Of a stretch of 55,497 bases of DNA, positions 45,759-55,497 are shown piece by piece. Numbering within the stretch: position 1 is the first letter of the stretch; each line of letters opens with the position of its first letter. Below the pieces are notes generated by a model. The model made no database searches. It saw only the letters and a list, made by a program, of their open reading frames with translations, and was not told the origin of the DNA. The translations under genes were made by a program, and so were the position numbers. The stretch is from Candidatus Heimdallarchaeota archaeon. GTDB lineage: Archaea > Asgardarchaeota > Heimdallarchaeia > Heimdallarchaeales > Heimdallarchaeaceae. The stretch covers positions 1-55,497 of the forward strand of contig BPTO01000002.1 in the NCBI GenBank assembly GCA_023705985.1, read 5' to 3'.

Positions 45759-46622
45759 ATGAAAATTACTGTTACTAACGTTTACAATAACACTGCTATG
45801 CAAGGTTCAAACTTGAAAAAAGGTCATGGTCAGTCGTTTTTTATTGAAACTGAAGGCACAAAAATCCTTTATGATACAGGTTTGAATGGTAAAGACTTAT
45901 TTCATAATTTTAATCTAATGAACATTGATCCTAATACACTCGACTACTTAGTCATTAGTCACGGGCATTTTGACCATACTGGTGGTCTAGAAGAACTGTT
46001 AAAAGCTAGAGCTGCCTCAAAACCTCTATTAACAATTGCCCACCTCTCTATTTTGGAAGCCAAAAAAGCAAGAGGAAAAAAGTATAAACTCCCATATAAG
46101 TATGATATAGGTATCCCAAAAATTGAAGAAATTCTATTCAAAAAATTGAATTTTAGATTTGTTGAAGAACCTTATAAAATAACTCCCTGGCTATATACTT
46201 CAGGAGTAGTTCTTGATAGAGAAGAAAGAGATGGAACTAGTGAACGTTTAATTCACAAAGAGGGAAGAAAATGGGTTCGTGATCCAATGTTAGATGATCT
46301 TTCATTGGTATTAAAGACAAAAAAAGGTTTAGTTCTCATTTGTGGCTGTTGTCATGCAGGTTTGTTGAATATTCTCAAACAAGTCGCTGAAAATCATAAA
46401 GATGAAAAAATACATTCCATTTTAGGAGGAACACATATGGTAGCTTTTACTGGAGATGAGGTAACTCATGTTGGCGACATTCTTGAATCGCGTTATGGGA
46501 CTCCCCAACTTTACTTAAATCACTGCACTGGAAACCATATTATTGACCAGCTGAAAGCACGTTTTAGTGATGATATTGTTAAACCATGTCATGCAGGTAC
46601 AAGACTTGTTTTCGAATACTAA
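45759..46622 (+). CDS. MBL-fold metallo-hydrolase (COG1237-like), paralog 1
   Basis: GHGQSFFIE, VISHGHFDHTGGL, ICGCCHAGL and GGTHM. Confidence 0.75.
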   Translation: MKITVTNVYNNTAMQGSNLKKGHGQSFFIETEGTKILYDTGLNGKDLFHNFNLMNIDPNTLDYLVISHGHFDHTGGLEELLKARAASKPLLTIAHLSILEAKKARGKKYKLPYKYDIGIPKIEEILFKKLNFRFVEEPYKITPWLYTSGVVLDREERDGTSERLIHKEGRKWVRDPMLDDLSLVLKTKKGLVLICGCCHAGLLNILKQVAENHKDEKIHSILGGTHMVAFTGDEVTHVGDILESRYGTPQLYLNHCTGNHIIDQLKARFSDDIVKPCHAGTRLVFEY

Positions 46623-46682: not shown

Positions 46683-47555
46683 ATGAAAGTAATTATAAAA
46701 AATATTTATAACAACACAGCTTTGACTGGTAAAAATCTTAAAACCGGACACGGACAATCTCTTTATATAGAATCTGAAGAGCATAAAATTCTCTATGATG
46801 TAGGATTCAAAAGTAAAGATTTTATTCATAATATGAAAATATTGGGAATTAACTCCAACGAAATTGATTTTCTTATCTTATCCCATGGACATTTCGATCA
46901 TACTTTTGGGCTTAAAGCTTTTTTGAAAGCTAGAACAGAGAAAGAAAAAATAAATGTTATAGCTCATCCTGATGCTATTGAAGAGAAAAAAGTTCTTTTC
47001 CCTCTATCAATGCTTTTCCTCTTCAAATTTAAGACTACAAAACTTGGTTTTCCCTCTCTGTCTAAAGCGCAATTTGGGAGATTAGATTTTAACTTTGTTA
47101 AAGAAGTTTATGAAGTAACACCATTTCTTACAAGTTTAGGTGAAATTAACGAAAGACCAGAAAAAGATGGAACAATGAAGCTGTTAACGCATAAAGAATC
47201 AGGTAAATGGGTGAAAGATCCTATTAATGATGATTTGTCACTTATCCTTAAGACAAAAGAAGGATTAGTGTTAATCTGTGGTTGTTGTCACGTAGGATTG
47301 CTCAATACTTGTGAATATGTTACTAAGAAATATGAAAATGAGAAAATTGTTTCAATAATCGGTGGCACCCATATGCTACGATTTACAGAAGAAGAAGTTG
47401 CTGATGTTGCTGAGAAAATGGAAAAATATGGGAAACCAACGCTCTATTTAGGACACTGTACTGGTGAAAAAACAATTAATCAACTCAGGCAACATTTCGG
47501 AGAAGAAATCGTTAAACAATTTCATGTTGGTACTGAATTATCATTTGAGTGTTAA
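46683..47555 (+). CDS. MBL-fold metallo-hydrolase (COG1237-like), paralog 2
   Basis: GHGQSLYIE, ILSHGHFDHTFGL, ICGCCHVGL and GGTHM. By eye, roughly half of the positions are identical to paralog 1. Confidence 0.75.
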   Translation: MKVIIKNIYNNTALTGKNLKTGHGQSLYIESEEHKILYDVGFKSKDFIHNMKILGINSNEIDFLILSHGHFDHTFGLKAFLKARTEKEKINVIAHPDAIEEKKVLFPLSMLFLFKFKTTKLGFPSLSKAQFGRLDFNFVKEVYEVTPFLTSLGEINERPEKDGTMKLLTHKESGKWVKDPINDDLSLILKTKEGLVLICGCCHVGLLNTCEYVTKKYENEKIVSIIGGTHMLRFTEEEVADVAEKMEKYGKPTLYLGHCTGEKTINQLRQHFGEEIVKQFHVGTELSFEC

Positions 47556-47607: not shown

Positions 47608-50600
47608 TTATTTTTTAGCCATTGCTTTTCGTAATTCTTTTATTGATTCATAAGGTTGGTTAATAGCTAGCGTAAATTCTACCACAGCTTTTTCTTTAGG
47701 TTTCAAATCAAATAAAGAAATCATGAAATTCATTATTGTTACTTGAGCATCAAATATTGTATTAGAACCATGAAAGCCATCCGGACATATGAAATCTAAA
47801 GATTTAGAATTTTTTGTAATTCTCACCCATGGTTCATCTGGATTAGCGTGACCCATAAACGGTTTCAACACTCTATTTCTTGTCCATGTTTTTAGTCCTC
47901 CTGGAACATGAATTACATTATCTTCTACATCTCCTTGCATGCATATATCAGCTAACAAGGCTGCAATACTTCTAATACGCCTTGAAGAAGTGTTATTGCA
48001 TTCATATTTGATGCGAACTAAATTAGAATCAGGTAAAGTAAAATAGCTCAGTGAAATTTCCTGTCCTTTTAGATGCTCAGATTTTGAAATTATCCATGTA
48101 GATTTGATTCCTTTCCATTCTCCATCTTCAACTATTTCAGCTTTTGTTTTTTCAGGTTCTGAGAATGGGTTATCCTCGTTCATCCAGAAAACTAAAGGTT
48201 GAATCCCACCGATGAAATGATCGATGAAGAATTTTGGTTGAATTTTTGGAAAATTGTCATCAAAGTATGTGGTACTCTCGTTATCTTCAAGTTTTATTAA
48301 ATTACCTCCAAAAAACTTAGGAACACTGAATTGGAGAGCTCCGTTTTTAACTAAATAGATAGGTTCTCCTTCTATCTCACACTCTTCAATTGCTACATCA
48401 TTTTTTCCTTTAAGGACTATGGGAATTTCAAAGTTAAGTTCATATTCACTAATAAAACGTAAATTTAACATATCTATAGCTTTTATTGTATTAATTTGAG
48501 GAGTGAGTTCTATCTCAATTGGAATAGGAACGTTAGGTGTTGGTTGGGGTATGGATATCATACTTTTATTGTCTCCTGAGGTTTTGAAACCACCATTCCA
48601 TCCTTTTGGAAGTACTAATTTTAATTCCCCTGCAAATGGATAGGGAGTTTCAAAAACTAATTCTATGATTTTTGATACTGTAATGCCTTTTTCTAAGATG
48701 TTAGAACCCTTCAGTCTAATTTCAATAGGTTGGACAGTTTTTACTCCAAACATTCTCTCTTCATCGGGTATTTCTTTACAATTAACAAATTGATTCCATC
48801 GATTTCTTACATCCTGTATCGAAGTGTATGAATGCCCAAACCATGTATGAACTACTTCTAGAGTTTCATTCTGTTCTAACATCTTTGACTCACTTTCAAG
48901 ATTATCAAGGATGCCTTTAGTTACTTTAACTTTTGATATATTATCAGGTTTCCAGAACCATGCAGCAAAAGATGCCTCCCCCAGATACTCTCCTGCTGTC
49001 CAGGTTTCATGCCAATCTTTCGATTCTATCGGAACCAAAGTGTCACTCATTACGGGTAAAGTTGGGTCACACTCAATATACTTGTTATTCACAGGCGTAA
49101 TGACTCTTGCATAGTTTCCGAAGGGATTAACGTTAAGTCCTTGTGGAACACCGGTTGAAAATCTTCCTCCCGCAGCTAACCCACTATCAGATATGTTAGT
49201 CAACTCAATCCAATGTTCAAATTCACGAATTCCGGGTGTTACTTTAACAAATTTCTGAATCTTAAGACCCTCAACTTTCCTACTTTTAGCATGTAATTCA
49301 AGAGTGATTTCATTTCCTTCCTTTACTTTTTTATAGTCAAATTTCAAAGTTCTATCCAAATCTAAACCAAAAGGGGGACCTATCTGAAAAATGGATCTTA
49401 CTTGACCACCTTCTAGATTTCTTCGTGCAAAGGTCATATTTCCACCTTCAAGAAATACCTCTATTGACCAAAAATCAGTGAGAAGTGTTATTCTTTCTTC
49501 ATTTTGTCCTTCTATTACTTCTGCTAAGTTCGTTATATCTGCAACAATTGGTATCTTATATTCTGGCATTATGTGGTAAGAATCGGAAATCTTTATTGCT
49601 GGTTTAGCTAAAATAGTGAATACTGTCTGATGCGGTTTCACAGGAATTGTGATTGGAATATCTATTCCTGTTATTTCTTCTGGTTCTAAATTGAACTCTA
49701 CTGTTTTACTTCCCTCTTTGATACCATCTATTTGGATATCAACTTTACCTTCAATTTTTTTATTACTGTGATTAAATAAATCAAGATAAACAATTTTTTC
49801 TGTTCCTACAGGAGCTACTTCATACTGGAAGTCACTTGTCAGTTTTACAGCAGGTTTAATTTTTCCACCTGTTAACAGTTCTAGATTATATTTTTCAAAT
49901 GAAATTGATGTTCTTATTACTTCAGAACCTCTTTGATTTGATTTAAATTCAGTAGCAGTGTTATCAACAATAAACTCTCTGGATATTTCTACATCTTCTC
50001 CATTCTTAACGGTGATAGATTGCGGAAATTCCTCTTTCCATGTTAAACCTTTAAATGGAGTAATAGACAATGCAAAACTAATATCTTCGCCTAAATCATT
50101 ATTAATTGTGATTGTCATGGTATTGCTAATTCCCATCAAAATTTCGTGTGATTCCAGCCTAGTTTTTATTGAAATAGCTTTACCATCAAGAACGCGTGTA
50201 ATGCTTGTAAACCCCCATCCATAACGGTCAACTTCTGCAGTTAATTTATCATCATCAACTTCAAAGATATAAGTATAAAGTTCCATTTTGTCGACAATGT
50301 ACTTATCAGGTGCTTGGGTTAGTTCTCTTTTAAAACACCCATACCAATCTTGATGTTTTTCAAACCATTCCACTGCAAGAGGCGTTTGTAATAACCCTGG
50401 AATGAAATCTTGCATATATACACTTGTTTCAGGAACCCAATACAAGCCAACTTTTTTGTAAAGCGGCATGGCTTCCATGTTGCCTGACCAGGTATAAAGA
50501 TCGACACGTTCTCTGCCATTATTTTTAGCGACTTCAAGCGCTTTTAAGAGCAGTCTTTTACCAAATTTCTTTCCTTGAACTCGTGGAATAACTCCTAATA

Positions 50601-50859
50601 TGGTAATATAGGCTGCCTTTTCATCTCGCCAATGAGGGTATAGACCGCAGTAACCCACGGGCACTCCTTCTTGGTCAACAGCTACCAAGTCCGCGATTGC
50701 AGATGTTTTATCTAACCACTCTTTCACTCTTTGTTCTGTATAAGGAATTCCTCCACCGAATCCACCTAACCATAATTCATTAAATGCATTAAACATATCA
50801 GCACATTCACTGGCCATTACTGGGTCGTAAACAGTGATTTTTCCCCATTCTTCACTCAT
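47608..50859 (-). CDS. Large cytoplasmic protein: an N-terminal GNAT acetyltransferase domain fused to about 900 aa of unassigned beta-rich sequence
   Basis: GNAT motif A: YITILGVIPRVQGKKFGKRLLLKALEVAKNNG. No signal peptide or TM segment. The rest has no motif I recognise. Confidence 0.6.
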   Translation of the reverse strand: MSEEWGKITVYDPVMASECADMFNAFNELWLGGFGGGIPYTEQRVKEWLDKTSAIADLVAVDQEGVPVGYCGLYPHWRDEKAAYITILGVIPRVQGKKFGKRLLLKALEVAKNNGRERVDLYTWSGNMEAMPLYKKVGLYWVPETSVYMQDFIPGLLQTPLAVEWFEKHQDWYGCFKRELTQAPDKYIVDKMELYTYIFEVDDDKLTAEVDRYGWGFTSITRVLDGKAISIKTRLESHEILMGISNTMTITINNDLGEDISFALSITPFKGLTWKEEFPQSITVKNGEDVEISREFIVDNTATEFKSNQRGSEVIRTSISFEKYNLELLTGGKIKPAVKLTSDFQYEVAPVGTEKIVYLDLFNHSNKKIEGKVDIQIDGIKEGSKTVEFNLEPEEITGIDIPITIPVKPHQTVFTILAKPAIKISDSYHIMPEYKIPIVADITNLAEVIEGQNEERITLLTDFWSIEVFLEGGNMTFARRNLEGGQVRSIFQIGPPFGLDLDRTLKFDYKKVKEGNEITLELHAKSRKVEGLKIQKFVKVTPGIREFEHWIELTNISDSGLAAGGRFSTGVPQGLNVNPFGNYARVITPVNNKYIECDPTLPVMSDTLVPIESKDWHETWTAGEYLGEASFAAWFWKPDNISKVKVTKGILDNLESESKMLEQNETLEVVHTWFGHSYTSIQDVRNRWNQFVNCKEIPDEERMFGVKTVQPIEIRLKGSNILEKGITVSKIIELVFETPYPFAGELKLVLPKGWNGGFKTSGDNKSMISIPQPTPNVPIPIEIELTPQINTIKAIDMLNLRFISEYELNFEIPIVLKGKNDVAIEECEIEGEPIYLVKNGALQFSVPKFFGGNLIKLEDNESTTYFDDNFPKIQPKFFIDHFIGGIQPLVFWMNEDNPFSEPEKTKAEIVEDGEWKGIKSTWIISKSEHLKGQEISLSYFTLPDSNLVRIKYECNNTSSRRIRSIAALLADICMQGDVEDNVIHVPGGLKTWTRNRVLKPFMGHANPDEPWVRITKNSKSLDFICPDGFHGSNTIFDAQVTIMNFMISLFDLKPKEKAVVEFTLAINQPYESIKELRKAMAKK

Positions 50860-51039: not shown

Positions 51040-51930
51040 TCAGTATTCATGGAATGTTCCTTTATGTTGTATCCTCTTGTAGATTGATTTGAATAATATT
51101 TGGAAAACTACAAAGAGAACTACTGAACCTGCTATAAGAACCAATAGAGCATGCCATACTATGGAATCAGTTACTATTCCTTGTCCAAATAAACAGAAAC
51201 GGATAGCCTTGACTACTTGCGTAAGAGGAGATATTTGTGCTATCGTTCTCAACCAATTTGGAAAAACGCTCAAAGGAAACAAACTTCCACTTAATAACAA
51301 TAAAACCCCAATAATAACCATGGAGATCTCCCTTCCTCTTTTAATCAAAACAGTAAATATTGCTCCTACAAGTGCTAAAGCAGTAAAAAAAGCAAATGTG
51401 AAAAACAGTAATAATAAAATTGTTAATGATGAAGAGAATGTTACTGAAACGTCTCTTAAAAGTGGAAAAATGAAAAAAACCGGTATATAATAAACAATGT
51501 TTAAAACAAGGGTGTAGACCACTTCTGCAAAGGTTTCCGCATATACATACTTCTTCAAACCAAACTGTGTTGTGATTAAAGCTTCAAAGGTACCTTGTCT
51601 CATTTCGCTTTGAAAAGAACCTAGAGTACTTGTGATTGTTTTAGCGGTTATTTCAACAATAATTATACCAACAAAAATAAAAGAAACACTAGAGATTCTA
51701 TATCCATCATTTTCTATTATTCCACTTTCTATAAGTAAAGAAACAAAGTAGTATAGGGACACAACTGTTAATGTGCTAAGAAATCCTTTGATCAGCAGGA
51801 ATCTATACTGCCAGATGATTTTAATATTTCGTTTTAATGTCTGAAGGAATCCACAAAAAAATGAGTTTGAAGAGTTGGGAATCTTAGAATCAAACGTTTT
51901 TCTAACTTGTTGTATGATTTTAGTGCTCAC
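51040..51930 (-). CDS. ABC-2 type transporter permease
   Basis: Six hydrophobic helices. Its start overlaps the stop of the upstream permease gene. Confidence 0.6.
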   Translation of the reverse strand: MSTKIIQQVRKTFDSKIPNSSNSFFCGFLQTLKRNIKIIWQYRFLLIKGFLSTLTVVSLYYFVSLLIESGIIENDGYRISSVSFIFVGIIIVEITAKTITSTLGSFQSEMRQGTFEALITTQFGLKKYVYAETFAEVVYTLVLNIVYYIPVFFIFPLLRDVSVTFSSSLTILLLLFFTFAFFTALALVGAIFTVLIKRGREISMVIIGVLLLLSGSLFPLSVFPNWLRTIAQISPLTQVVKAIRFCLFGQGIVTDSIVWHALLVLIAGSVVLFVVFQILFKSIYKRIQHKGTFHEY

Positions 51931-52790
51931 TAATAATCATCCACTGATCCTTTGATTTTTGAATTTCTTATACTAATTTTTGTCAGAATCCAAGATATAT
52001 ATCCAACTATTATAGTAAAACCTAACAAGAATAAGGCATTTAGAAGAACTATCGTAAAGTCTTCTCCCGGATTGAAAATCACCATTTGCATAGATTGAAG
52101 CCCATACGTCAAGGGAAGAATTTTCGAAATAAATAATGGGAACCCGCTTAGAAGTGCTATCGGGAAAACAACTCCAGAAAAAGTTTTTGTCAATTGATAG
52201 ATCAACGAAACAAGACCACTATCTTTTTTGTACCAAATTATGAAAGCACTAAAAAGCATCGAAATTGTGATGTGAGAGATTATTAGTAAGATTAGAAGAA
52301 GGAAAATCATAATTATTTGAAACAAAGAAAAAACTATTTGCAATCCAAGAAAAATTTGTGATACAATAAGTGCTGCTACAATAGAAAAGGAGGAAAGAAA
52401 AGCACCTGCCAGAGCTGTACCAATCGCATATTCAATAAAATTGAAGTGCAATAAAGTATGTGACCACGTTCCTGTAAGTATTTCTTGGTGGATACCTCCG
52501 TTTACAGTTGATAGTGTAGTTCCTATCAGCATTTGTAACGAGAGCCCAATAAACACAAATTCAAAATAAGCTGCATTAATACCAAAAACACTTAGATTTG
52601 GATTTAGTTTACCATAAAAAAAGTAAATAAAAATAGTAACCAAGTTAAGAAGAACTACCATTAAGTAGCTACTTTTGTAATTTAGAGCCATTTTAACTCT
52701 GGTGATAAAAATTGCTTTAATCCGTGTGAAAAAGGAGCTATAAGCTGTAGGATGACTGAACGAGTTCAAAACCTGATTAATAGTTGCCAT
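51930..52790 (-). CDS. ABC-2 type transporter permease
   Basis: Six hydrophobic helices. It begins 2 nt after the stop of the ATPase gene. Confidence 0.6.
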   Translation of the reverse strand: MATINQVLNSFSHPTAYSSFFTRIKAIFITRVKMALNYKSSYLMVVLLNLVTIFIYFFYGKLNPNLSVFGINAAYFEFVFIGLSLQMLIGTTLSTVNGGIHQEILTGTWSHTLLHFNFIEYAIGTALAGAFLSSFSIVAALIVSQIFLGLQIVFSLFQIIMIFLLLILLIISHITISMLFSAFIIWYKKDSGLVSLIYQLTKTFSGVVFPIALLSGFPLFISKILPLTYGLQSMQMVIFNPGEDFTIVLLNALFLLGFTIIVGYISWILTKISIRNSKIKGSVDDY

Positions 52791-52792
52791 TA

Positions 52793-53821
52793 TTACTCCA
52801 CCATTTCAATAGGAATCGAAAGAATAGTCTCTTTCTCTTGTTCCTCTTTGATTTTAAGAAAAGCAAGAAAAGACTCCTTCAAGCTAGGTATGAAGGGAGC
52901 TATCTTGAAAACCTTCCCTCCACGCTCTAAAATCAAAACTGTAATTAAGGAAATTGTTTCATTCAAAGGATAACGTTCGGCTTGTATTTGAGCTTCATAT
53001 GAATTTACGTAATTTGTGCTCTCAACTAGACGGATAATTTTGGCATGGGCTACTTGACGAATTATTTCACTAAATATTTCCTTTTGAAAATTAGGTACGG
53101 AAAAAATAACATCTACAAGTTCTTGAGATGCTACTTTCTTAAATGCAAAGGGGGCACAATCTTCAACCATTTTACCTTGATCGATTAATATGATTCTTCT
53201 TGTTAGCGCATCAATTTCTGAAAAATTATGGCTAGTTAATAGAATTGTTGTCCCAAACTCTTTATTAAAATCTGTAAGTAGATTTTTAGTTTTTTCAGAA
53301 GAAATAGCATCAAACCCTAGTGTGGGTTCATCCAATAAAAGAACTTGAGGTAAAGGAATTAGCGATCTAATGAGTACTACTTTTGCCTTCATTCCCGTAC
53401 TAAGTTTCATTACAAGCGTTTTTCTTTTTTCTTCTAAATCAAAATACTTCAATAAAGAAGCAATTCTGTTTTGAGCTTCTTTTTTTTGAACACCTGCTAG
53501 AGTAGCATAAAATCTTAGATTATCCTCAATAGATAATCTGTAATAAAGACTCCTTCCACCACTCTCACCGAAAGCTGTACTGATTATTTTTCTTATTTTT
53601 TTATCCTCTGTTATTGGAATATCATTGATGTAAGCTTCTCCAGAGGTTGGTAAAAGTAATGTTGAGAGGATCTTAGTAAGTGTCGTTTTTCCAGCTCCAT
53701 TTGGTCCAAGCAATCCTAGAAATTCGCCTTGCTTAATTTTGAGTGATATATCATCTAACGCATGTATTTTTCTCCCTCGTTTATTGAAAGACTTGGATAC
53801 ATTGTGAAGCTCTATACTCAT
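52793..53821 (-). CDS. ABC transporter ATP-binding protein (ABC-2/CcmA-like) with a C-terminal accessory domain
   Basis: GPNGAGKTT, LSTGMKAKV and VLLLDEPTLGFD. Confidence 0.85.
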   Translation of the reverse strand: MSIELHNVSKSFNKRGRKIHALDDISLKIKQGEFLGLLGPNGAGKTTLTKILSTLLLPTSGEAYINDIPITEDKKIRKIISTAFGESGGRSLYYRLSIEDNLRFYATLAGVQKKEAQNRIASLLKYFDLEEKRKTLVMKLSTGMKAKVVLIRSLIPLPQVLLLDEPTLGFDAISSEKTKNLLTDFNKEFGTTILLTSHNFSEIDALTRRIILIDQGKMVEDCAPFAFKKVASQELVDVIFSVPNFQKEIFSEIIRQVAHAKIIRLVESTNYVNSYEAQIQAERYPLNETISLITVLILERGGKVFKIAPFIPSLKESFLAFLKIKEEQEKETILSIPIEMVE

Positions 53822-53942: not shown

Positions 53943-54635
53943 TTAATTTTTTTCTAAGGGCTTTTTAAGCTCGTTATAAATTAGGTTAACTCGTTCGTAA
54001 AATCCTTTTGTATGATAAGTGCTTGATAATTTCAACTTATATTTGTCATAATGATGCGCCCATTCATGAATTAACGTCCTCAAAAAAGTCTTAGGAGCTA
54101 CATATTTTTGCGTTTTAGCTGTTCTACTATATACTGAAATTGATGAATGTTTATTTTCTTCTCCTCTTGTTCTATGTACACCATAATATTGATTCCCACT
54201 TCTTGTTAATCTTCGCTTTCCACCTGTAAATACTGGCAATGAGGGAAGTTTATATTCAGCATTTAGTTCCTCTATAACATTATTTGAGTATTGTTTTATC
54301 GTGATATTGTCTTCACTTTTTAACGCCCTTGCAAGCATTTTTACAGTTGTTTGGAATGATATTAACGTGTTCTTAGAAGGTAAATTGATTTCAGTATTGT
54401 TTGATTTTTTATAATCTCTATTCTGCTCTTTTGTCCATTCTTTATTTGTATAAGAATTCTTTTTCATGTTTTTTTTCAGAGGAGGTTTAATTTTTGGGGT
54501 TAACAATTGGTAAGGTACTCTAAATAGAATCTGACCATTAACAATGACTGTTACTGTTTTCCGATTCAATCGTTTGATTATCCCTTCTATGTTCTCTCCT
54601 CTATAAGGAAAACTAACGTTTTTTTCTGAATCCAT
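53943..54635 (-). CDS. SprT-like zinc metalloprotease-motif protein with a basic N-terminal half
   Basis: LIHEWAHHYDKYKLKLSSTYHTKGFYERV gives HExxH plus a downstream His in an H-x-x-G-F context, as in SprT/Spartan-type minigluzincins. The linker is Lys/Arg/Asn-rich. Confidence 0.5.
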   Translation of the reverse strand: MDSEKNVSFPYRGENIEGIIKRLNRKTVTVIVNGQILFRVPYQLLTPKIKPPLKKNMKKNSYTNKEWTKEQNRDYKKSNNTEINLPSKNTLISFQTTVKMLARALKSEDNITIKQYSNNVIEELNAEYKLPSLPVFTGGKRRLTRSGNQYYGVHRTRGEENKHSSISVYSRTAKTQKYVAPKTFLRTLIHEWAHHYDKYKLKLSSTYHTKGFYERVNLIYNELKKPLEKN

Positions 54636-54778: not shown

Positions 54779-55081
54779 CTAGAACTTAAGATTGTGATGA
54801 GCATGTGCTTCTGAATTATCTTTGAGGTAGATTACGATATCAATTCGAAATGTTCCCCATCCTCTTGCACTGAAAGCAAACTTTGTGTCACGGTTTGTTA
54901 CAACTTGAATCGGATCAGGAAAGCTTGGATGTAAGTGGTACTCGACTTTATCAACTGAATCCAGTTTAGTATCGTCTTCATCCATATAAATTGTCCATTC
55001 ATACCACGTGTAGTCTCCTCTAGAGATGTTAGGCAAGGATTTTGCATCATTGTTAAATTTGAATTCTATTTGTTTATTCAT
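54779..55081 (-). CDS. Stand-alone YEATS-like domain protein
   Basis: YEWTIYMDEDDTKLDSVDKVEYHLHPSFPDPIQVVTNRDTKFAFSARGWGTFRIDIVIYLKD aligns motif-for-motif with eukaryotic YEATS (W.v.v...V.KV.FHLHeSFp.P.r.v..pPf...e.GyagF.i.i.iyfk). Confidence 0.7.
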   Translation of the reverse strand: MNKQIEFKFNNDAKSLPNISRGDYTWYEWTIYMDEDDTKLDSVDKVEYHLHPSFPDPIQVVTNRDTKFAFSARGWGTFRIDIVIYLKDNSEAHAHHNLKF

Positions 55082-55497
55082 AGCTTTTTCACCTTTTTTA
55101 GAATTTTATTGACTTTAAATGGACGTGTTGTCCACTTTTTTACATTACCATTATCATCCGGCATTTCAACAAGTGTAACATCAATTGAGTCTGAATAATC
55201 AACAATCAAAGGGGAACTTGGATGATTCAACGAAAGAACCCAGTTTCCGAAGTCGTCTGTAATATTAGCCCTTCCATTATATTTATTTTCTTGTACGTTG
55301 TCACGAACTAGCATTGTACATTTATCAACATTGAGATCTACAATATTAGGAAAATCAAAACCAATGATAAATGGTGTTTTAGGGTTAAAGACTTCAGATT
55401 TCTTCCATAAAAGAAGTCCAAAAACAACTATGAGTAAACCTATTAGCGCCAATCCACCAATTACAACTTCAATATGGTCTCTTCCTAAAGCAATAAG
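55078..55497 (-). CDS. Single-pass membrane protein with a beta-rich extracytoplasmic or unknown domain; possibly 5'-truncated by the window edge
   Basis: The hydrophobic helix LALIGLLIVVFGLLLW is followed by about 100 aa. The frame is open to nt 55497, and the stop overlaps the YEATS start (ATGA). Confidence 0.5.
   Translation of the reverse strand, partial: LIALGRDHIEVVIGGLALIGLLIVVFGLLLWKKSEVFNPKTPFIIGFDFPNIVDLNVDKCTMLVRDNVQENKYNGRANITDDFGNWVLSLNHPSSPLIVDYSDSIDVTLVEMPDDNGNVKKWTTRPFKVNKILKKVKKL

Follow-up and report, generated by a model that had tools for sequence, protein, structure and literature searches.

A short YEATS-domain protein of a Heimdallarchaeon is encoded with a two-helix membrane protein in a module shared with bacteria

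The DNA analysed here, referred to below as the window, is a stretch of 55,497 nucleotides from Candidatus Heimdallarchaeota archaeon (contig BPTO01000002.1 of GenBank assembly GCA_023705985.1, positions 1 to 55,497) with a G+C content of 34%. Close to its end, a gene on the minus strand codes for a protein of 100 amino acids (aa), which a first-pass annotation made from the sequence alone had described as a stand-alone YEATS-like domain with an apparently intact acyl-lysine pocket. We find that this protein belongs to the prokaryotic YEATS family (pYEATS) and that its gene overlaps the gene of a small membrane protein, hereafter the partner, together with which it recurs in archaea and bacteria. 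The features of the locus are as follows:

54779..55081, minus strand: coding sequence of the pYEATS-domain protein, an ATG-to-stop open reading frame (ORF) of 100 aa with the sequence considered in the first-pass annotation
54848..54862, minus strand: second pocket loop, G74-W75-G76-T77-F78, which translates to GWGTF and corresponds to Taf14 G80-W81-G82-G83-F84 and AF9 G77-Y78-A79-G80-F81
54920..54931, minus strand: first pocket loop, H51-P52-S53-F54, which translates to HPSF and corresponds to AF9 H56-E-S58-F59 and Taf14 H59-P-T61-F62
55078..55081, minus strand: ATGA overlap of the pYEATS start codon with the TGA stop codon of the partner gene (plus-strand bases TCAT), from the ORF coordinates
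55078..55497, minus strand: 3' part of the partner gene (139 codons and the stop codon), from translation; its first 34 codons lie past the window end

The 100-aa protein contains neither a signal peptide nor any other domain. It matches the Pfam pYEATS profile (PF20305) over positions 1-73 of 73, that is over the full domain, with an expectation value (E) of 3.2e-22 and 78.6 bits at a gathering cut-off of 26.9, and the Pfam YEATS profile (PF03366) with E=1.7e-16 and 60.3 bits at a cut-off of 22; no NCBIfam model matched it. This pair of scores is typical, with 20 other pYEATS proteins reaching 45-91 bits on the pYEATS and 28-60 bits on the YEATS profile. When all PDB sequences were searched with phmmer, only YEATS domains were returned, namely those of Taf14 (2e-8), YEATS2 (4e-7), GAS41 (8e-7) and AF9 (1e-4). 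An AlphaFold2 model calculated from 58 aligned relatives shows an all-beta sandwich of seven strands, with a mean predicted local distance difference test score (pLDDT) of 87.9 and a predicted template modelling score (pTM) of 0.77. The top 50 PDB matches of this model in Foldseek were YEATS domains throughout, with query-normalised template modelling (TM) scores of 0.67-0.78, and of 0.76-0.78 for Taf14. The first-pass annotation had tied its YEATS-like assignment to a significant profile match and to a predicted Ig-like sandwich with an aromatic pocket, and both were found: the pYEATS and YEATS matches are far beyond chance, and the predicted sandwich with its pocket matches Taf14. The ORF codes for a genuine member of the pYEATS family, with a minimal seven-stranded Ig-like sandwich, and we hold this assignment, together with the statements on the two-protein module made below, with high confidence. 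The identical protein is present on 10 public contigs with the same neighbours, and a copy with 96% identity and unchanged gene order, the only match in a genome-contig scan with the single protein, is found in Candidatus Heimdallarchaeota archaeon isolate 18H4_34, in agreement with the archaeal origin assumed in the first-pass annotation. Compared with close Heimdall relatives, the ratio of nonsynonymous to synonymous substitution rates (dN/dS) of the pYEATS gene is 0-0.29, based on few substitutions.

The residues of the pocket were mapped by aligning the 100-aa protein with the AF9, GAS41 and Taf14 sequences, verified against the PDB and given in native numbering, which yielded the following equivalences:

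H51: AF9 H56, Taf14 H59, GAS41 H71
S53: AF9 S58, Taf14 T61, GAS41 S73
F54: AF9 F59, Taf14 F62, GAS41 Y74
G74: AF9 G77, Taf14 G80, GAS41 G92
W75: AF9 Y78, Taf14 W81, GAS41 W93
G76: AF9 A79, Taf14 G82, GAS41 G94
F78: AF9 F81, Taf14 F84, GAS41 F96

That these residues build the acyl-lysine cage of AF9 and Taf14 has been established by structural work and fits the titles of the PDB entries. Judged by this alignment, the cage that binds acyl-lysine in eukaryotic YEATS domains is kept in the Heimdall protein, in the form of H51, S53, F54, W75, G76 and F78. The AF9 numbering given in the first-pass annotation proved to be correct, and the aromatic sandwich that it regarded as preserved can be recognised at these six positions, but AF9 F28, the sixth cage residue, has no direct aromatic equivalent: its place in the alignment is taken by T25, between Y24 and W26. 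Likewise, the segment H-L-H-P-S-F does supply H51, S53 and F54, but its first H (H49) is not a pocket residue; it lies outside the pocket and is R, L or V in the family. In 52 non-redundant relatives that are linked to the module described below, the first pocket loop is conserved with 92% for H and 100% for both S/T and F, and the second with 100% for G and 98% each for W, G and F. More broadly, residues W29, Y48, L50, H51, S53, F54, P55, P57, G74, W75, G76 and F78 are 87-100% conserved among these relatives, and the pYEATS motifs W..V[FY], VxYxLH.[ST]FP.P and GWG.F are all present in the 100-aa protein. As conservation at the cage positions amounts to 92-100% among the 52 module-linked sequences, a ligand-binding function seems to have been maintained.

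The eukaryotic YEATS domains (Taf14, AF9/ENL, GAS41 and YEATS2; PF03366) are experimentally proven acyl-lysine readers, and the Heimdall protein resembles them in its predicted fold and in the cage positions H, S/T, F, G, W/Y, G/A and F, its GWG.F loop being closest to that of Taf14. However, the identity is only ~23-30% in the Foldseek alignments (~29% for Taf14), and eukaryotic YEATS domains have eight strands and ~135 aa compared to seven strands and 100 aa here: the Heimdall protein stops ~35 residues short of them and the last strand is missing. Whereas the eukaryotic domains are associated with chromatin, the 100-aa protein is encoded in an operon with a membrane protein that has two transmembrane helices (2TM). 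From the other members of Pfam pYEATS (PF20305), with which it shares the motifs LH[PE][ST]FP.P and GWG.F, the domain itself is indistinguishable; what sets the short subfamily apart is its pairing with the 2TM plus beta-sandwich protein.

The partner gene lies upstream of the pYEATS gene, and the two make up an operon in this order. They share the ATGA overlap, which points to co-transcription and translational coupling of pYEATS and partner, and the same 4-nucleotide overlap is present in the loci L001-L009 and L090 (we refer to loci by L numbers and to individual relatives by P numbers). In L001-L009 the partner is complete, with 173 aa that form two transmembrane helices and, C-terminal to them, a beta-sandwich of ~100 aa. 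The term stand-alone chosen in the first-pass annotation is thus appropriate for the polypeptide but not for the gene, which overlaps that of a partner absent from the annotation and belongs to a recurrent pair. None of 36 database homologues of the partner carries a Pfam domain, and direct Pfam and NCBIfam scans of the partner were empty. A structure was predicted with AlphaFold2 for the full-length homologue P0292, which is 88% identical to the partner in the window, using 37 aligned sequences. The model (pLDDT 78) has helices at residues 7-37 and 40-66 and then a beta-sandwich of ~100 residues with blocks at pLDDT 85-94; a Foldseek search with it against the PDB and BFVD gave nothing significant. 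Among close Heimdall genomes, dN/dS of the partner is 0.45-0.69, again calculated from few substitutions. A 312-aa variant of the partner, with an N-terminal extension of ~150 aa that precedes the two helices, is encoded at L057:3628-4566 and also in L058 and L060; this variant has no Pfam match.

Exactly two hydrophobic segments are present in 79 of the 94 members of the partner family, and in 74 of these 79 the flanks are richer in Lys and Arg than the connecting loop. According to the positive-inside rule, this distribution indicates an N-in/C-in orientation with the beta-sandwich in the cytoplasm. A cytoplasmic location of the partner beta-sandwich is therefore probable, as predicted from the charge distribution, and is consistent with the lack of a signal peptide in the pYEATS protein and with the natural fusions described below. 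The Kir/KirBac potassium channels, which were the top, non-significant Foldseek matches of the partner, likewise combine two transmembrane helices with a subsequent cytoplasmic Ig-like beta-sandwich. The best of these matches had an E of 0.037, a TM score of ~0.3 and a root-mean-square deviation of ~18 A, however, and the partner has neither a pore loop nor a selectivity filter. In the partner of the window itself, the loop between the helices comprises 2-7 residues, and we conclude that the partner is not a member of the Kir/KirBac family.

The recurrence of the pair was followed by scanning metagenome contigs with patterns derived from an alignment of the 100-aa protein and its closest short relatives. 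The scan yielded 80 loci with pYEATS proteins that are 35-48% identical, and after those nearly identical to the window had been set aside, 78 loci were counted, using simple ORF calling and searching all locus ORFs with the partner by phmmer and jackhmmer. A partner homologue is located directly upstream on the same strand in 53/78 loci, and in a further 8/78 partner and pYEATS are fused in one ORF of 283-435 aa; the partner is lacking in 12/78 loci and the upstream sequence is too short in 5/78. Hence, within this subfamily, which was retrieved with query-like patterns only and with crude ORF calling, the pair is present in adjacent or fused form in 61/73 evaluable loci (84%). The partner homologues were recognised by phmmer with E down to 2.5e-19, and jackhmmer gathered 58 non-redundant members. 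Fusion of the partner domain to pYEATS was also seen in 11 of the top 150 matches when 1.84 billion representatives were searched with HMMER in an unbiased way. The reciprocal look-up, starting from the partner homologues P0277, P0292 and P0297, found a pYEATS gene directly downstream in all three cases (3/3), and across the related loci no third conserved gene was found beside the pair. Taken together, the short, seemingly stand-alone pYEATS protein is one half of a conserved, self-contained and ancient two-protein module that is anchored in the membrane and sometimes made as a single chain.

A HMMER scan gave 1449 representatives of the domain at E<=1e-3, the best of which are prokaryotic, with 45-52% identity and E down to 1e-38. 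Besides the Heimdall group, the module is present on a second archaeal contig (L026; 43% G+C), which encodes aIF2-gamma, and on clearly bacterial contigs, among them L088, which encodes HU, ribosomal protein S1, GGDEF and PhoR proteins and a nos cluster. It is thus common to bacteria and at least two archaeal lineages. Neighbour-joining trees were calculated from 94 columns for 92 prokaryotic domains together with AF9, GAS41 and Taf14. The eukaryotic trio formed a split of its own in 67/100 (Kimura) and 35/40 (BLOSUM-based) bootstraps, whereas the 100-aa protein joined the eukaryotic YEATS domains in only 3/100 and 7/40, respectively. By distance, the eukaryotic domains occupy ranks 86-94 of 94 and are the most remote from it. 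Although these are distance trees of a short domain with three eukaryotic sequences only, and not a definitive phylogeny, they argue against a specific affinity between the Heimdall and the eukaryotic proteins, and the phylogenetic check proposed in the first-pass annotation did not place the protein with eukaryotic YEATS.

A YEATS-domain protein from this phylum has been described before. HeimC3_47440 of Heimdallarchaeota LC_3 was reported to have a modified-lysine site that is strictly conserved in comparison with YEATS2 (5IQL) and was proposed as a possible reader of histone tails, in an organism that also possesses histones with lysine-rich tails and GNAT enzymes; its sole homologue was reported from Bathyarchaeota (Henneman et al., 2018, PLoS Genet; PMC6136690). 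According to this description, HeimC3_47440 resembles the window protein in its phylum and in the conserved acyl-lysine site, and YEATS2 is the second-best PDB family for the latter. Whereas one Bathyarchaeota homologue was noted for HeimC3_47440, the relatives of the window protein number in the hundreds, from bacteria as well as archaea, and its membrane partner is conserved. In the literature, we found nothing beyond this study on pYEATS, on bacterial YEATS domains or on YEATS domains in defence, and no description of the 2TM partner, the fusion variants or the presence of the pair in bacteria. The core observation is therefore already in print, in the form of a curated Pfam family and of the HeimC3_47440 study (PMC6136690), while the pairing with the 2TM protein is undescribed in the literature that we found. 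JGI labels pYEATS members as 'transcription initiation factor IIF auxiliary subunit'.

The wider pYEATS family shows a variety of architectures. The top 150 representatives comprise 36 short single-domain proteins, the 11 partner fusions, 50 proteins with tandem repeats and 53 with other regions. At least 26 of the tandem pYEATS proteins carry the repeats behind a signal or transmembrane segment, and 24 have no clear signal or are fragments. In secreted-looking relatives, P0002-P0020 and others, a signal peptide precedes two or three pYEATS domains in tandem; several secreted relatives, including some of P0002-P0020, contain papain-like or astacin-like peptidase regions as judged by eye, and one relative is labelled by its source as a peptidoglycan-binding-domain protein. 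For a YEATS-like domain outside the cytoplasm, the reading of acyl-lysine is hard to reconcile. In Pfam scans, pYEATS was found fused to caspase (C14), patatin, TPR, pentapeptide repeats, TIR_2 (at 49 bits) and FGE-sulfatase. At L046:3754-6762, FGE-sulfatase, pYEATS and a THF_DHG_CYH-like region are combined in one protein of 1002 aa. In three further loci, L074 (5250-6648), L078 (5174-6535) and L083 (185-1237), the 2TM protein upstream of pYEATS is replaced by an alternative partner of ~235 aa, whose N-terminal half is weakly TIR-like and whose C-terminal half is rich in beta-strands, and in L074 the pYEATS protein is itself the one fused to TIR_2 (49 bits). The death-type effector proteins with pYEATS (TIR_2, caspase C14, patatin, peptidases) thus share the sensor domain with the window protein and, in L074, L078 and L083, the gene order. 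They differ in that the only candidate effector in the window is a two-helix hairpin without a known toxic or pore-forming signature.

Based on these observations, we favour, with somewhat more confidence than doubt, the explanation that the pair senses acyl-amides as a membrane-tethered module of the conflict or stress type. The way in which such a module might work is a more tentative proposal, possible but short of an even chance, and is made by analogy with the pYEATS domains that are joined to TIR, caspase, patatin and peptidase effectors. The pYEATS protein would dock on the beta-sandwich of the partner on the cytoplasmic side of the membrane. The cage would bind an acylated amine, most plausibly an acyl-lysine of a protein, and occupancy by the ligand would then be passed on to the membrane hairpin, which could act as the output or effector. 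Of the two readings offered in the first-pass annotation, a sensor in a conflict system is the better fit, given the TIR, caspase and patatin fusions and the alternative partner with a TIR-like head; it gains nothing, however, from a PADLOC match, a defence island or viral copies.

Several observations weigh against the proposed conflict or stress sensor. PADLOC-DB v2 contains no meaningful match for pYEATS, the partner or the neighbouring gene with an HExxH motif, the only matches in the neighbourhood being generic ABC-ATPase ones for a transporter ATPase, and no relatives were found on viral contigs. The flanks of the Heimdall and bacterial loci, as seen in three genomes, are of the housekeeping type (ThrRS, LeuRS, EPSP synthase, SerRS) without an obvious defence island, the synteny is stable across the sampled close Heimdall relatives, and the dN/dS of pYEATS indicates purifying selection. 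With regard to the partner, no recognisable pore or enzyme signature was found by Pfam or by Foldseek against the PDB and BFVD, and its beta-sandwich aligns only weakly with the beta half of the ~235-aa partner (hhalign probability 18%), although the alignment includes a conserved Cys, GG and Trp. The pairing frequency holds for a subfamily selected by its likeness to the query. Many of the other pYEATS proteins are secreted and built of tandem repeats, so that the ligand of the family need not be an intracellular acyl-lysine.

The stable synteny in the sampled close Heimdall relatives, the housekeeping neighbours, the purifying selection on pYEATS and the lack of defence-database matches and viral copies would all be expected if the membrane pair had no role in conflict and instead read the acylation of protein lysines, as a measure of the acetyl-CoA or acetyl-phosphate status, in order to regulate a membrane process. 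Lysine acylation is widespread in prokaryotes, which also speaks for such a housekeeping function. Nevertheless, the genes that flank the module differ in every unrelated genome, its distribution over bacteria and archaea is patchy, and sister architectures carry the death-type effectors TIR, caspase and patatin, which suggests a mobile, self-contained conflict module, and we consider a housekeeping sensor unlikely, if well worth keeping in mind. The secreted relatives raise a different possibility, namely that the cage does not read lysine acylation but binds a non-protein acetamido or acyl-amine group at the membrane, such as an N-acetyl-sugar lipid carrier, an envelope precursor or an acylated polyamine. 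Acyl-lysine is an improbable ligand for the at least 26 of the top 150 proteins in which tandem pYEATS domains follow an N-terminal signal or transmembrane segment, for the peptidase-like fusions recognised by eye and for the relative with the peptidoglycan-binding label, and the partner does place pYEATS at the membrane. On the other hand, the protein has kept all pocket residues through which Taf14 and AF9 contact the amide of acyl-lysine, and a carbohydrate-binding precedent for the YEATS fold is absent among the PDB matches; we therefore give this possibility a rather small chance, a little below that of the housekeeping sensor.

Smaller still, in our view, is the chance that the protein reads acetyl- or crotonyl-lysine on chromatin proteins such as archaeal histones with tails and is a vertically inherited forerunner of the eukaryotic YEATS domains. 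The intact pocket, the fold shared with Taf14, AF9 and GAS41 and a GNAT-domain protein encoded 4 kb away in the window can be cited in favour of it, and the same function was proposed for HeimC3_47440 of LC_3 (Henneman et al., 2018; PMC6136690). However, the gene is translationally coupled to that of a membrane protein, with which it is even fused in other organisms, and the module is also present in bacteria, which have no histones. Its nearest relatives are prokaryotic, the eukaryotic YEATS domains rank only 86th-94th of 94 and the bootstraps that join it to them amount to 3/100 and 7/40. In addition, the GNAT neighbour is not conserved, being absent from L007 and a different protein in L001, and a tblastn search of the window with HMfB gave no histone match better than E=1.7, so that this search of the window did not bear out the first-pass statement that the archaeon encodes histone-fold proteins. 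The eukaryote-like acylation or chromatin reader, the other reading offered in the first-pass annotation, is hence disfavoured, and it is in all likelihood wrong to regard the pYEATS protein as a chromatin reader that was passed down specifically with the eukaryotic stem lineage.

The membrane-tethered sensor module that we prefer has implications beyond this locus. Although acetylated lysine is plentiful in both bacteria and archaea, to our knowledge no prokaryotic reader domain for it has been shown experimentally. As every residue with which eukaryotic YEATS domains grip acyl-lysine is kept, pYEATS is an obvious candidate for such a reader, and while the identity of the domain is in itself ordinary, the module provides a concrete candidate that can be tested. 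Since the module is anchored in the membrane and shared with bacteria, the relevant question is whether the pocket binds a ligand and whether pYEATS interacts with the partner, rather than whether it recognises histone tails. The shared module and its membrane partner shift the likely biology away from chromatin and call for caution before the gene is listed among the eukaryotic signature proteins of Asgard archaea. Should acyl-lysine prove to be the ligand of the pocket, the family would reveal the origin of the eukaryotic chromatin readers. One might speculate further that pYEATS domains are true prokaryotic acyl-lysine readers, the first dedicated ones outside eukaryotes, that 2TM-pYEATS is a membrane-tethered acylation switch, and that the eukaryotic YEATS domain was derived from this older family of prokaryotic sensors via an Asgard or bacterial donor by losing the partner and gaining the C-terminal strand; this scenario as a whole is a long shot, although not a negligible one.

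Several other genes lie in the vicinity of the pair, and no tRNA or Rfam matches were found in the window. Directly downstream of pYEATS, a lysine-rich protein of 230 aa with a metallopeptidase-like HEWAH (HExxH) motif is encoded on the minus strand (53943-54635); its only family match is a weak one to Peptidase_M91 (E=0.015). It was considered as a third component of the module and rejected, its homologues being restricted to close Heimdall relatives (L001-L009, L090). The GNAT domain mentioned above forms the N-terminus of a 1083-aa protein with a long uncharacterised remainder (47608-50859, minus strand; ~4 kb from pYEATS). At the corresponding position, a GNAT of 160 aa and, after it, a protein of 1689 aa are encoded in L001, and both are missing from L007; because L001 differs and L007 is without the GNAT, the linkage of GNAT and pYEATS is not conserved. 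The GNAT protein was likewise rejected as a 'writer' partner, since it is not conserved even among close Heimdall relatives. On the aIF2-gamma contig, the 2TM-pYEATS pair is located ~2 kb upstream of a gene with a Schlafen/AlbA_2 domain (L026:5407-9420); genes of this type are often found in defence neighbourhoods. Two tandem proteins of the metallo-beta-lactamase (MBL) fold, with 287 and 290 aa, are encoded on the plus strand of the window (45759-46622 and 46683-47555), and their precomputed Pfam matches include the anti-Pycsar protein Apyc1, which may reflect a generic similarity of the MBL fold. Finally, an ABC transporter operon on the minus strand (51040-53821), with one ATPase and two ABC-2-type permeases, is located between the HExxH and GNAT genes.

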